Shown in pieces: positions 18,784 through 58,333 of a DNA stretch of 64,000 nt. The position numbers were made by a program, and so were the translations under genes. Source of the DNA: Escherichia coli (GTDB lineage Bacteria > Pseudomonadota > Gammaproteobacteria > Enterobacterales > Enterobacteriaceae); NCBI RefSeq assembly GCF_001677475.2, contig NZ_CP015229.1, one strand, 5' to 3'. The notes beneath the pieces are model-generated. The model searched no databases, was not told the origin of the DNA, and saw nothing but the letters and a program-made list of their open reading frames with translations. Positions within the stretch are counted from its first letter, which is position 1; each line of letters opens with the position of its first letter.

Positions 18784-21700
18784 ATGACAGAACAACAAAA
18801 ATTGACCTTTACTGCTTTGCAACAGCGGCTGGATTCGCTGATGCTGCGCGACAGACTGCGTTTTTCTCGCCGTCTGCACGGTGTTAAGAAGGTTAAAAAT
18901 CCTGATGCACAACAGGCCATTTTCCAGGAAATGGCGAAAGAGATTGACCAGGCGGCAGGGAAAGTCCTGCTGCGTGAAGCGGCACGACCGGAAATCACTT
19001 ATCCGGACAATTTGCCAGTTAGTCAGAAAAAGCAGGACATACTCGAAGCGATTCGCGATCACCAGGTGGTGATCGTCGCCGGGGAAACGGGTTCTGGTAA
19101 AACGACTCAGTTACCGAAAATCTGTATGGAGCTGGGGCGCGGGATTAAAGGGCTGATCGGCCATACCCAGCCGCGTCGCCTGGCGGCAAGAACGGTGGCG
19201 AACCGTATTGCGGAAGAGCTGAAAACGGAGCCGGGCGGTTGCATCGGTTACAAAGTGCGTTTCAACGATCACGTAAGTGATAACACGATGGTCAAGCTGA
19301 TGACCGACGGTATCCTGTTGGCGGAGATCCAACAAGACCGCCTGCTAATGCAGTACGACACCATCATTATTGACGAGGCGCACGAACGCAGCCTGAATAT
19401 CGATTTTCTGCTCGGCTATTTGAAAGAGTTGCTGCCGCGGCGTCCTGACCTAAAAATCATTATCACTTCCGCGACTATCGACCCGGAACGCTTTTCGCGC
19501 CACTTTAATAATGCGCCGATTATTGAAGTCTCCGGTCGGACTTATCCGGTGGAAGTGCGCTATCGCCCGATAGTTGAAGATGCGGATGACACTGAGCGCG
19601 ACCAGTTGCAGGCGATTTTTGACGCCGTGGATGAACTGGGGCGTGAAAGTGCCGGCGACATTCTGATCTTTATGAGCGGCGAGCGGGAAATTCGCGATAC
19701 CGCCGATGCGCTGAACAAGCTGAATCTGCGTCATACGGAAATTTTACCGCTTTATGCGCGGCTTTCGAATAGCGAACAGAACCGCGTGTTCCAGTCGCAC
19801 AGCGGACGGCGTATTGTGCTGGCGACCAACGTCGCGGAAACCTCGCTGACCGTACCGGGGATTAAATACGTTATCGACCCCGGTACGGCGCGTATCAGCC
19901 GCTACAGCTATCGCACCAAAGTGCAGCGTTTGCCGATTGAACCCATTTCACAGGCGTCTGCCAATCAGCGTAAAGGCCGTTGTGGTCGTGTGTCCGAAGG
20001 GATCTGTATTCGTCTCTATTCCGAAGACGATTTCCTCTCGCGCCCGGAGTTTACCGATCCAGAGATTCTGCGTACCAACCTGGCCTCGGTTATTTTGCAG
20101 ATGACCGCGCTGGGGCTGGGCGATATCGCTGCGTTCCCGTTTGTCGAAGCACCGGATAAACGCAATATCCAGGATGGCGTGCGTCTGCTCGAAGAGCTGG
20201 GCGCGATCACCACTGATGAACAGGCCAGCGCCTATAAACTGACGCCGCTCGGTCGTCAGCTCTCGCAGTTGCCTGTCGACCCACGTCTGGCGCGTATGGT
20301 GCTGGAAGCGCAAAAACATGGCTGCGTGCGTGAGGCGATGATTATCACGTCCGCGCTCTCCATTCAGGATCCGCGCGAACGTCCGATGGACAAACAGCAG
20401 GCATCGGACGAAAAACATCGTCGCTTCCACGACAAAGAGTCTGACTTCCTGGCGTTTGTGAATCTGTGGAATTATCTTGGCGAGCAGCAAAAGGCGCTTT
20501 CTTCAAACGCCTTCCGTCGCCTGTGTCGTACCGATTATCTCAACTATCTGCGTGTGCGCGAATGGCAGGATATCTACACCCAGTTGCGTCAGGTGGTGAA
20601 AGAACTTGGCATTCCGGTCAACAGCGAACCGGCGGAGTATCGCGAAATTCACATCGCCTTACTGACCGGTTTGCTTTCCCATATCGGCATGAAAGATGCC
20701 GATAAACAGGAATATACCGGTGCACGTAACGCGCGTTTCTCCATCTTCCCCGGTTCTGGTTTATTCAAAAAGCCGCCGAAATGGGTAATGGTGGCGGAAT
20801 TGGTAGAAACCAGCCGCCTGTGGGGGCGCATTGCTGCGCGTATCGATCCAGAATGGGTGGAACCCGTTGCGCAGCATTTGATTAAACGCACCTACAGCGA
20901 ACCGCACTGGGAACGGGCGCAGGGCGCGGTGATGGCAACGGAAAAAGTCACTGTGTATGGATTGCCGATTGTTGCCGCGCGCAAGGTCAACTACAGCCAG
21001 ATTGATCCGGCGTTATGTCGTGAACTCTTTATTCGCCACGCGCTGGTGGAAGGTGACTGGCAGACGCGTCACGCATTCTTCCGTGAAAACCTGAAACTGC
21101 GGGCCGAAGTGGAAGAACTGGAACACAAATCACGTCGCCGCGATATTCTGGTTGATGACGAAACGTTGTTTGAGTTTTATGACCAGCGCATCAGCCACGA
21201 TGTAATCTCCGCTCGTCACTTCGACAGCTGGTGGAAAAAAGTCAGCCGCGAAACGCCTGATTTGCTGAACTTTGAAAAGAGCATGTTGATCAAAGAAGGG
21301 GCGGAAAAAATCAGCAAGCTGGATTACCCGAACTTCTGGCATCAGGGCAATCTCAAGCTGCGTTTGAGCTATCAGTTTGAGCCCGGCGCGGATGCTGACG
21401 GTGTGACGGTACATATCCCGCTGCCGTTACTTAATCAGGTTGAGGAGAGTGGGTTTGAGTGGCAGATCCCCGGCCTGCGCCGCGAACTGATCATCGCGCT
21501 GATTAAATCGTTGCCGAAACCGGTACGGCGTAATTTTGTACCCGCGCCAAACTACGCCGAAGCGTTCTTAGGCCGCGTCACGCCACTGGAGCTGCCGTTG
21601 CTCGACAGCCTTGAGCGCGAGCTACGTAGGATGACCGGCGTTACCGTTGACCGCGAGGACTGGCACTGGGATCAGGTGCCCGATCACCTGAAAATCACCT

Positions 21701-54940: not shown

Positions 54941-57031
54941 TTACTCAAATCGCCACGCAATATTCATGCCGACACCATAATTTCGTCCGGGCGCAGGTTC
55001 GTAATATCGCCCGTTTGACTCATTGACAATGACAGAACCAACGTATTCTTTATCGAATAAATTATCGACACGACCAAATAAATCCACGGTTAAATTGTGG
55101 TAATTGTATTTATACCCGGTGAATAAGCCGACGAGAGTATAAGACGGCGCTTTTGCCGTATTTTCATCATCTGCCATAATATCGCCCATATAACGCGCTT
55201 CCGTGCCTGCATACCAGCCATCTTCCGGTACATAACCTATCGACGCAAAGCCCATATTACGGGCGATCCCTGGCATCCGATTACCGTTACAATCCTGTTC
55301 GTTGCAAACATTGCTGCGATAGGTCGCATCAAGCCAGGTCCAGGACGCGTTTACGCGAAAATCTCCCGCGAAACGTTGATCCCATGCCAGTTCAGCGCCT
55401 TGACGACGGGTCTTTCCGGCATTTTTGTAAGTCGTACGCCCACCGCTACTGCTATCGACAACAATTTCATCATCGGTGTCGGTCTGGAACAATGCGAGAC
55501 TAAGCAGCCCATCACCAATACGCGTTTTACTGCCGATCTCAATTGTATCGTTGGTGGATGGTTTTAAACCAAAGTTCATACCGCTTTGCCCATCAGCGCG
55601 ATAAGACAGTTCATTAATCGTCGGCGTTTCAAAACCTCGCCCGGCTGCCAGATAGATATTCCAGGCATCGGTCATTGCATATTTTAACGAACCGGCAGGT
55701 AGCCATTTATGATAACTGTCATCGCCGTTACCCGGAGTAACGTAATGGTCGTTGGAATCAAACCACACGGAGCTGTAGCGCACGCCAGCATCCAGCGACA
55801 GTTTTTCGCTCAGCTGCCACTGCGTCTGTAAATAGGGATCGACGTTCCACATCAGATTGCGTTCGTCGCGACGCAACTCACCTTTTTGCCCGTATTCCGG
55901 CACGCCGCTATTCAGGCGGAAGTTATTGTAGCCCTTGCGGTTTTCACTCATGTTTTCGTAGTTCAGGCCGGTAGTGAACGTGACCGGAACGCCCAGTTCA
56001 CCACGGTGTGTCCAGCGGCTGTCTATTCCCTGGTAATGGCGTTGCAGGGTAATCACGCCGCCCGCATGTGACGGGTTAAGTTGTGGTGCCATGGGTATTG
56101 ACTGGTACTGGGTCGTTTCTCGCTCTCCGGCATACATCATCACACTCATATCATCCCGCGAACTCAGGCTACGTTCATAGCGCAACCCAGCCTGAGTTTG
56201 CTTGATGGTTTTTCGCGTGTCGTACTGTTCTGCACGAGGCGCTTGTTGTGGATTCGCCTTCCATTCTGCTTTTGTTAGACCACCTGGGTCATCTGCTTTG
56301 ATATCCACACTATTGAAAATCAGGCTTAATTTGCTGGCTTCATCAATGCGCACGCCCAGTTTGGCATTGGCTAAATTTTTCTGTGCGCCACTATGGTTAC
56401 GATAACCGTGGGTCGTAAAACGCGTGGTTGAGACGGTGTAATCGACATCGCCAGGCTGTGTGCCGTCGCCCGTTACACCCGTTGCTTTCAGCCCATAGCG
56501 CCAGCTGCCAAAACTGCCGTAGTAACTACTGGCTTCAATAGTTGGTGGCAGTTGTCCGGTCTGGGTGGTGACATTCATTACCCCACCAGACGCGTTGCCA
56601 TACAGGGCAGAGAAGGGGCCACGCAGCACTTCCACATTTTGCACACTGCTTAAATCGATGTTGGATGTTTGCCCTTGCCCGTCGGGCATGGTGGCGGGAA
56701 TACCGTCCACATACAGGCGAATACCGCGAATTCCGTAAGTGGAACGGGAGCCAAATCCGCGAATCGACAGCTGTAAATCTTGCGCATAGTTCTGCCGGTT
56801 TTGTACCTGCAAACCAGGCACGCCGGTCAGTGATTCGGACAAGTTAATGCGCGGTGTTGCCAGGCGCATCTCCTTGCCATCCACCACGCTCACGGCTGCA
56901 GGGGTATCCAGTTCTGAAACCACCTGCGGCGCGGCACTGACAATCATGGTCTGTTCATCAGCGGCAAAAACAACGGGGGAAAGAACAAGCAGTGCGGGCA
57001 AAACGGTCTGTCGAACGAAAACAATCTTCAT
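54941..57031 (-). CDS. yncD: TonB-dependent outer-membrane receptor YncD
   Basis: Track ORF, 696 aa; signal peptide; C-terminal aromatic residue (…AWRFE). Confidence 0.9.
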   Translation of the reverse strand: MKIVFVRQTVLPALLVLSPVVFAADEQTMIVSAAPQVVSELDTPAAVSVVDGKEMRLATPRINLSESLTGVPGLQVQNRQNYAQDLQLSIRGFGSRSTYGIRGIRLYVDGIPATMPDGQGQTSNIDLSSVQNVEVLRGPFSALYGNASGGVMNVTTQTGQLPPTIEASSYYGSFGSWRYGLKATGVTGDGTQPGDVDYTVSTTRFTTHGYRNHSGAQKNLANAKLGVRIDEASKLSLIFNSVDIKADDPGGLTKAEWKANPQQAPRAEQYDTRKTIKQTQAGLRYERSLSSRDDMSVMMYAGERETTQYQSIPMAPQLNPSHAGGVITLQRHYQGIDSRWTHRGELGVPVTFTTGLNYENMSENRKGYNNFRLNSGVPEYGQKGELRRDERNLMWNVDPYLQTQWQLSEKLSLDAGVRYSSVWFDSNDHYVTPGNGDDSYHKWLPAGSLKYAMTDAWNIYLAAGRGFETPTINELSYRADGQSGMNFGLKPSTNDTIEIGSKTRIGDGLLSLALFQTDTDDEIVVDSSSGGRTTYKNAGKTRRQGAELAWDQRFAGDFRVNASWTWLDATYRSNVCNEQDCNGNRMPGIARNMGFASIGYVPEDGWYAGTEARYMGDIMADDENTAKAPSYTLVGLFTGYKYNYHNLTVDLFGRVDNLFDKEYVGSVIVNESNGRYYEPAPGRNYGVGMNIAWRFE

Positions 57032-57170
57032 GAAAAAAGCCAGGTTAAGAATGGGAAAACACCGTCATGGTAATAAAATTGTAAATTTATGGAAAACGAA
57101 ACGGCACGATACGTTAAGTAATTGAGAAAATTGTAGTCGTAACGGCAAGAAATGCTCCACATTTGAGAAA

Positions 57171-57185
57171 ATAATGATTACCATT
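57171..57185. promoter_or_regulatory. Candidate Fur box in the yncD/yncE divergent promoter region
   Basis: ATAATGATTACCATT resembles the Fur consensus core ATAATGATAATCATT; about 90 bp upstream of yncE. Confidence 0.4.
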
Positions 57186-57271
57186 CCCATTTATAACAAG
57201 AGCGTAACGATGATTACGCTTAGCGAAGCATTGTGAAGCAGCAAAAATATCGGTCATCAAAGGGAGTCGTC

Positions 57272-58333
57272 ATGCATTTACGTCATCTGTTTTCATCGCG
57301 CCTGCGTGGTTCATTACTGTTAGGTTCATTGCTTGTTGCTTCATCATTCAGTACGCAGGCCGCAGAAGAAATGCTGCGTAAAGCGGTAGGTAAAGGTGCC
57401 TACGAAATGGCTTATAGCCAGCAAGAAAACGCGCTGTGGCTCGCCACTTCGCAAAGCCGCAAACTGGATAAAGGCGGCGTGGTTTATCGTCTTGATCCGG
57501 TTACTCTGGAAGTGACCCAGGCGATCCATAACGATCTCAAGCCGTTTGGTGCCACCATCAATAACACGACTCAGACGTTGTGGTTTGGTAACACCGTAAA
57601 CAGCGCGGTCACGGCGATAGATGCCAAAACTGGCGAGGTGAAAGGCCGTCTGGTGCTGGATGATCGTAAGCGCACGGAAGAGGTGCGCCCGCTGCAACCG
57701 CGTGAGCTGGTGGCAGACGATGCCACGAACACCGTTTACATCAGTGGTATTGGTAAAGAGAGCGTGATTTGGGTCGTTGATGGCGAGAATATCAAACTGA
57801 AAACCGCCATCCAGAATACCGGTAAAATGAGTACCGGTCTGGCGCTGGATAGCAAAGGCAAACGTCTTTACACCACTAACGCTGACGGCGAATTGATTAC
57901 CATCGACAGCGCCGACAATAAAATCCTCAGCCGTAAAAAGCTGCTGGATGACGGCAAAGAGCACTTCTTTATCAACATCAGCCTTGATACGGCCAATCAG
58001 CGTGCATTTATCACCGATTCTAAAGCGGCAGAAGTGTTAGTGGTCGATACCCGTAATGGCAATATTCTGGCGAAGGTTGCGGCACCGGAATCACTGGCTG
58101 TGCTGTTTAACCCAGCACGTAATGAAGCCTACGTAACGCATCGTCAGGCAGGTAAAGTCAGTGTGATTGACGCGAAAAGCTATAAAGTGGTGAAAACGTT
58201 CGATACGCCGACTCATCCGAACAGCCTGGCGCTGTCTGCCGATGGTAAAACGCTGTATGTCAGTGTGAAACAAAAATCCACTAAACAGCAGGAAGCAACC
58301 CAGCCGGATGATGTGATTCGTATTACGCTGTAA
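57272..58333 (+). CDS. yncE: Periplasmic beta-propeller protein YncE
   Basis: Start at ATG 57272 (MHLRHLFSSRLRGSLLLGSL...) inside track ORF 57233..58333; 353 aa; signal peptide. Confidence 0.85.
   Translation: MHLRHLFSSRLRGSLLLGSLLVASSFSTQAAEEMLRKAVGKGAYEMAYSQQENALWLATSQSRKLDKGGVVYRLDPVTLEVTQAIHNDLKPFGATINNTTQTLWFGNTVNSAVTAIDAKTGEVKGRLVLDDRKRTEEVRPLQPRELVADDATNTVYISGIGKESVIWVVDGENIKLKTAIQNTGKMSTGLALDSKGKRLYTTNADGELITIDSADNKILSRKKLLDDGKEHFFINISLDTANQRAFITDSKAAEVLVVDTRNGNILAKVAAPESLAVLFNPARNEAYVTHRQAGKVSVIDAKSYKVVKTFDTPTHPNSLALSADGKTLYVSVKQKSTKQQEATQPDDVIRITL

Follow-up and report, generated by a model that had tools for sequence, protein, structure and literature searches.

The 64,000-nucleotide stretch of Escherichia coli DNA analysed here (the window) carries, between the divergent genes pqqU (formerly yncD) and yncE, a 19-bp element at positions 57170-57188 that is very probably the Fe2+-Fur operator of the yncE promoter. 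This element is already known: later papers credit McHugh et al. 2003 with a Fur box at the yncE promoter. It has little weight as a discovery, yncE being already placed in the core Fur regulon.

The preliminary description had pointed to the 15-mer ATAATGATTACCATT as a likeness of the Fur consensus core lying between a TonB-dependent receptor gene and yncE. An exact position check located this 15-mer at window positions 57171-57185 on the + strand, and the proposed setting was confirmed: the receptor gene is pqqU, and the gap that separates it from yncE covers 240 bp (57032-57271; 37% G+C). A 501-bp query spanning the region found matches in 5411 of the 5426 complete E. coli genomes, in which the two genes are named pqqU and yncE (see Table 1 for the coordinates of all features). 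The 15-mer is the same in MG1655 (NC_000913.3 1523205-1523219), CFT073 (NC_004431.1 1711865-1711879), W3110 (NC_007779.1 1524919-1524933) and a STEC strain. When the window was compared with K-12, CFT073 and the STEC strain, the operator showed no differences, and a few substitutions were observed elsewhere in the intergenic region; the yncE 5′ leader carries a 1-bp deletion at 57252-57253 (ATCGG-TCATC) relative to the same three. The product of yncE is a periplasmic seven-bladed beta-propeller protein. With regard to the origin of the DNA, the pqqU-yncE segment (56900-57400) reaches 99.2% identity among the 5426 complete E. coli genomes, and an hrpA segment (19250-19670) reaches a maximum of 95.5% identity to any of them, with 90-95% for most; the window appears to derive from an Escherichia lineage that is divergent or mosaic.

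Table 1. Features of the pqqU-yncE region and the evidence on which each assignment is based (window coordinates).
Feature	Position	Strand	Evidence and remarks
pqqU (formerly yncD) CDS	54941-57031	-	696-aa ORF; annotation in matching E. coli genomes
Putative yncE -35, TCCACA	57156-57161	+	within the conserved block CTCCACATT; retained in Citrobacter youngae, which lacks pqqU
Fur box (operator), 19 bp, AATAATGATTACCATTCCC	57170-57188		encloses the 15-mer at 57171-57185; consensus, PWM, ChIP and conservation
Second overlapping Fur-motif register	57176-57194	-	13.7-14.3 bits; third-best match in the window; 6-bp shift
Putative yncE -10, TACCAT	57179-57184	+	inside the Fur box; T1, A5 and T6 invariant, A2 at least 90% conserved
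Stem-loop in the yncE 5′ leader, AGCGTAA / CGATGA / TTACGCT	57201-57220	+	inverted-repeat scan and RNAalifold
RyhB-complementary element GAAGCATTGTG	57225-57235	+	10/11 complementary to RyhB nt 47-57, CACAUUGCUUC
yncE CDS	57272-58333	+	ATG at 57272; ORF and annotation of matching genomes; 353-aa translation served as query

The box agrees with the classical consensus GATAATGATAATCATTATC at 14 of 19 positions when read on the + strand and at 15 of 19 on the - strand, and the resemblance claimed for the 15-mer is thus borne out. The 15/19 match is unique to this box within the whole window, and matches at 14 or more positions are expected 1.5 times per shuffled 64-kb window. A consensus search of the window that allowed up to 3 mismatches returned no match, the box carrying 4-5 of them; its right arm (the 3′ third) reads ATTCCC where the consensus has ATTATC, which makes for a poor + strand match. 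Since the counting of consensus matches was too blunt, a position weight matrix (PWM) was used instead. This matrix was trained on 18 canonical peaks from the Fur ChIP-exo data for E. coli W3110 (Gao et al. 2023 Dataset 2, PMC10164565), namely those at fhuA, fepA/fes, fepD/entS, fepB, entC, fiu, fhuE, tonB, yddA, sufA, ydiE, cirA, mntH, nrdH, exbB, yqjH, sodA and yojI, by fitting an EM motif, seeded with the consensus, to the DNA around each peak, with yncE left out. The nrdH region held no usable training site (8 bits; -2.9 in the leave-one-out analysis), so that the matrix is slightly diluted by it. When left out in turn, the 18 training sites scored between -3 and 23 bits (median near 18); the ryhB operator, which was held out of training, scored 21.9 bits.

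With this matrix the yncE box, read on the minus strand as GGGAATGGTAATCATTATT, scored 16.1-16.6 bits, i.e., within the range of bona fide sites; scoring with a Fur matrix was a check that the preliminary description had proposed. It ranked second among the 127,964 positions of the window, and the number of matches expected per window at its score was 0.10-0.20 when bases were treated as independent and 0.24 when first-order shuffles were used. Of the composition-matched shuffled intergenic regions, only 0.26% attained the score of the box. Given the position-specific weights and the intergenic location, the resemblance to the Fur motif exceeds chance. In addition to the second register listed in Table 1, a further overlapping register was detected at 57167-57185 (11 bits); a 6-bp offset corresponds to the hexamer periodicity that is usual in Fur operators. 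The top PWM score of the window was observed elsewhere, within the hrpA coding sequence (19452-19470, - strand, GGAAGTGATAATGATTTTT, 17-18 bits). The MG1655 and W3110 peak lists contain no Fur ChIP-exo peak in its vicinity, and hence a high PWM score alone is no proof of binding; the hrpA match is probably a non-functional coding-sequence match.

Published ChIP data place Fur on the yncE box. The supplement of Banerjee et al. 2020 (PMC7157518) gives a CFT073 Fur ChIP-seq peak at 1711868, with a height of 845 and flanked by yncD_1 and yncE, and when this coordinate was mapped onto the sequence it fell within the box (1711865-1711879). For W3110, Gao et al. 2023 (PMC10164565) report a ChIP-exo peak at 1524928-1524940, under iron-replete conditions only, and this interval, mapped here, overlaps the box (1524919-1524933). 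The MG1655 sheet of the latter study lists, in older genome coordinates, a peak at 1521238-1521250, which is probably the yncE peak. In that sheet (PMC10164565, Dataset 2) the gene and TU labels are shifted by one row against the coordinates from P37 on, e.g., the label acnA stands at the tonB peak and adhP at that of yncE. Given this shift, peaks were assigned to genes by coordinate, and we relied mainly on W3110 and CFT073, for which the coordinates were open to a direct check; reuse of the MG1655 sheet by gene name would lead to mis-assigned peaks.

A second check envisaged for the site, the expression of yncE in a fur mutant or under iron limitation, is answered by published work, in which yncE is strongly derepressed in both situations. 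In CFT073 a 147-fold rise of yncE was listed for the fur mutant, and the gene was marked as directly Fur-regulated (Banerjee et al. 2020, PMC7157518). RNA-seq of fur mutants compared with the wild type in the presence of FeCl2 gave log2 fold changes for yncE of 3.10 in MG1655, 8.14 in W3110 and 3.6-5.5 in six more strains (Gao et al. 2023, PMC10164565), which corresponds to an 8- to 280-fold increase across the eight strains, and the same authors place yncE in a core Fur regulon of 36 genes. Furthermore, a fur mutant overproduces the YncE protein (Moriel et al. 2016), and iron limitation raises the yncE transcript 16-fold, for the most part without dependence on RyhB, whose share is about 3-fold (Bar et al. 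2022). Beauchene et al. 2015 describe a Fur site upstream of yncE and the activation of yncE by RyhB. Bar et al. 2022 credit the identification of the yncE promoter Fur box to McHugh et al. 2003, and Wang et al. 2015 likewise cite McHugh et al. 2003 as the source; Huja et al. 2014 predicted the yncE box with a PRODORIC matrix, whereas yncE is absent from Chen 2007. The literature surveyed contained neither an in vitro footprint or gel shift of the exact box nor a mutated version of this operator.

The box is also conserved well beyond E. coli. A YncE scan of GTDB species-representative genomes returned 79 loci, and the conserved form of the box, AATAATGATTAC[C/T]ATTC[C/T/G]C, was found 94-106 bp upstream of the yncE ATG. 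Of the 36 Enterobacteriaceae loci scanned, most had a box of 11-19 bits, including those of Escherichia, Citrobacter, Salmonella, Enterobacter, Klebsiella, Raoultella, Kluyvera, Lelliottia, Trabulsiella, Huaxiibacter and others, and near-consensus boxes of 21-22 bits were observed in Buttiauxella and Rouxiella. An alignment of 20 intergenic sequences, from about 15-20 enterobacterial genera, had a mean column identity of 58%, and the Fur box was its best-conserved block. Within the box cluster the invariant columns are TAATGATT (57172-57179), ATTC (57183-57186) and CA (57188-57189). Upstream, the cluster CTCCACATT (57155-57163), which is outside the Fur 19-mer, comprises five invariant columns and four that are at least 90% conserved. 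At least 5007 of the 5426 complete E. coli genomes carry the 40-bp core 57153-57192 unchanged. A second conserved block is located nearer to pqqU, at 57065-57117 (consensus ATGTTAA..TTTTGTAAAT..TTGAAAA.TTTAAC.GCACATT.CGTTAA). The PWM scan found no Fur motif in it, and it is presumably a promoter or regulatory region of pqqU.

Could the likeness to Fur be no more than that of an AT-rich promoter, i.e., the -10 and spacer of yncE, with the Fur dependence of the gene arising indirectly, for instance through RyhB? The intergenic region has only 37% G+C, matches to the consensus at 14 or more of 19 positions turn up 1.5 times per shuffled window, and RyhB does activate yncE. However, ChIP peaks lie on the box in at least two strains, only 0.26% of composition-matched shuffles attain its PWM score, its conservation tracks the positions of the Fur motif, and RyhB explains only about 3-fold of the 16-fold induction, so that we regard this explanation as extremely improbable. 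Hardly better placed, and still very improbable, is the view that the site chiefly serves as operator for a different regulator recognising AT-rich DNA, such as MarA, H-NS or another metalloregulator. A RegulonDB-derived table gives 'Fur, MarA' as the regulators of yncE, and a 10-bp direct repeat, TTGAGAAAAT, abuts the box, yet no evidence puts another regulator on the bases of the box, and Fur occupancy together with the fur-mutant phenotype fully explains the site. The two copies of the repeat are located at 57122-57131 and 57163-57172 (+ strand), 41 bp apart, and it is the second that abuts the box; the first lies in a stretch with little conservation beyond Escherichia, which also speaks against such a regulator. 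The repeat may be due to chance.

The assignment of the operator to Fur leaves the question of which of the two flanking genes it serves. No YncD match was found upstream in 17 of the 79 yncE loci, several of which are cut by contig ends, and about a dozen loci with full 1.5-kb upstream flanks were still without pqqU, mostly in Citrobacter, including the freundii group. In these loci both mcbR and pqqU are absent beside yncE. In Citrobacter youngae, which has no pqqU, a curA homologue and a terminator-like hairpin are found directly 5′ of the yncE promoter, and both the CTCCAC block and the box, AATAATGATTACTATTCTC, are intact. The retention of the box in Citrobacter without pqqU argues that the operator belongs to yncE. 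The preliminary description had considered both neighbours as plausibly iron-regulated; this holds for yncE, as a member of the core Fur regulon, and does not extend in general to pqqU. PqqU is a TonB-dependent importer of the cofactor PQQ, not of iron, and earlier work on YncD, as summarised by Grinter and Lithgow 2020 and by Hantke and Friz 2022, showed neither regulation by Fur nor induction by iron. In the fur mutants of Gao et al. 2023 (PMC10164565) the log2 fold change of yncD was 0.12 in MG1655 (p = 0.39), 2.95 in W3110 and 2.02 in strain 042, and the neighbours curA, mcbR and ansP were unmoved. Hence, pqqU is mostly unresponsive to Fur, with a modest response in W3110 and strain 042 only.

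That response bears on a different reading, in which the box is a shared bidirectional operator, and bound or spreading Fur also represses the divergent pqqU promoter, so that both genes are iron-responsive. In Gao et al. 2023 (PMC10164565) the W3110 ChIP-exo peak is credited to yncD as well as to yncE, and yncD moves in the W3110 and strain 042 fur mutants while curA, mcbR and ansP stay flat; in addition, an extra MG1655 ChIP-exo interval (1520944-1520980, old coordinates) appears within the 5′ end of yncD (PMC10164565). With an estimated offset, this interval corresponds to window positions of about 56886-56922, i.e., 110-146 bp inside pqqU. It contains no Fur motif, its best PWM score being -4.8 bits, and may represent a shoulder of the main peak. 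MG1655 carries the identical box, yet its yncD does not respond (0.12, p = 0.39), and the two papers cited above hold that YncD is not Fur-regulated, with PQQ and not iron as the substrate. The centre of the box is 148 bp away from the pqqU start codon, a separate conserved block (57065-57117) lies closer to pqqU, and the Citrobacter loci without pqqU keep the box beside yncE. On balance, a shared operator appears unlikely, and an operator of yncE is the reading that we retain.

How Fur might repress yncE is suggested by the position of the box relative to a putative promoter. The block CTCCACATT lies outside the 19-bp motif and therefore needs an explanation of its own, and it was read as containing the -35 hexamer. 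The candidate -10 varies as TACTAT in most genera and as TATTAT in Salmonella, and an ungapped 17-bp spacing between the two hexamers is kept in 20 of the 20 sequences. The yncE transcription start would then be near 57189-57193, just upstream of the covarying hairpin, and the Fur 19-mer would cover the spacer and the -10, from roughly -21 to -3, a placement that is classical for operators that repress by occlusion of RNA polymerase. A sigma-70 promoter scan of the region called no + strand promoter, so that the argument for the -10 overlap is one of conservation, and the conservation of the -10 is confounded by that of the Fur box itself. Two other candidates were discarded. A - strand promoter pair, TTCACA/AATCAT (57237-57210), occurs at chance frequency (0.9 expected), and its -10 is not kept in other genera; an alternative -10, TATAAC (57192-57197), is not conserved, and its start would fall inside the covarying hairpin.

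The 5′ leader that would follow from this promoter contains two further conserved elements. All 7 pairs of the leader hairpin showed compensatory changes across the 20 enterobacterial sequences (RNAalifold), G-U pairs outnumbered A-C mismatches by 16 to 4, which favours a + strand transcript, and conservation is also high in the ATGA of the loop. A comparison with Rfam returned no family for the hairpin, which may serve transcript stability or RyhB-dependent activation. The second element, GAAGCATTGTG, had 9-10 of 11 RyhB matches in 58 of the 72 yncE loci, compared with 6-7 in shuffles. The energy of the local duplex between RyhB and this element was -22 kcal/mol, a value that 2% of the shuffles reached, and the folding of the full-length RyhB/leader duplex was uninformative, 11% of the shuffles being as good. 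The activation of yncE by RyhB is reported in Bar et al. 2022, Wang et al. 2015 and Beauchene et al. 2015, and on the basis of its complementarity we infer that the element at 57225-57235 is a candidate RyhB pairing site for this activation.

Taken in sequence, the proposed regulation would operate as follows. When iron is sufficient, Fe2+-Fur dimers bind the 19-bp box at 57170-57188, and probably also the second overlapping register at 57176-57194. As the box would extend over the spacer and the -10, RNA polymerase would be excluded and yncE would remain silent. When iron is low, Fur leaves and yncE is transcribed, and RyhB, itself freed from Fur repression, would raise yncE further through the 5′ leader, thus forming a coherent feed-forward loop.

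Compared with known systems, the element is the same as the published E. coli yncE Fur box (McHugh 2003; ChIP in Beauchene 2015, Banerjee 2020 and Gao 2023), with an identical 15-mer. The fepA-fes, fhuA, entC, cirA, sodA and ryhB promoters, like that of yncE, combine a 19-bp GATAATGATAATCATTATC-type motif with registers that overlap at a shift of 6 bp, and they share with it binding only when iron is replete and derepression in fur mutants. However, the yncE box is weaker than the best sites (16.6 bits compared with 18-23 for most), its right arm is degenerate (ATTCCC), and the product of yncE is not a demonstrated iron transporter. Closest to it is the yddA Fur box (yddA-yddB-pqqL operon; W3110), GCTAATGATAACCATTCCC, which agrees with the yncE box AATAATGATTACCATTCCC at 16 of 19 positions, the atypical ACCATTCCC arm among them. 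Each is a Fur ChIP-exo site beside a TonB-dependent receptor locus, although the two belong to different loci and operons. With respect to RyhB, a coherent feed-forward involving Fur and RyhB is published for cirA, and yncE is likewise repressed by Fur and activated post-transcriptionally by RyhB, but for yncE both the pairing site (57225-57235) and any part played by the covarying 5′ hairpin are putative.

A broader proposal, which we put forward as speculation and consider somewhat less probable still than the shared operator, is that the yncE operator, from a position about 100 bp upstream of the pqqU promoter, exerts a weak and condition-dependent repression on pqqU, and that the leader hairpin and the RyhB-complementary element constitute an undescribed yncE activation module. 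If this were true, PQQ scavenging would be coupled to iron status. The gain of the present analysis is that the operator is fixed to exact bases and that the box is tied to yncE, and not to its neighbour, the TonB-dependent PQQ importer. YncE is a proposed vaccine antigen, and work on it could draw on a base-level map of its control region, which comprises the putative -35, the operator over the putative -10, the covarying leader hairpin, the RyhB-complementary element and the ribosome site.
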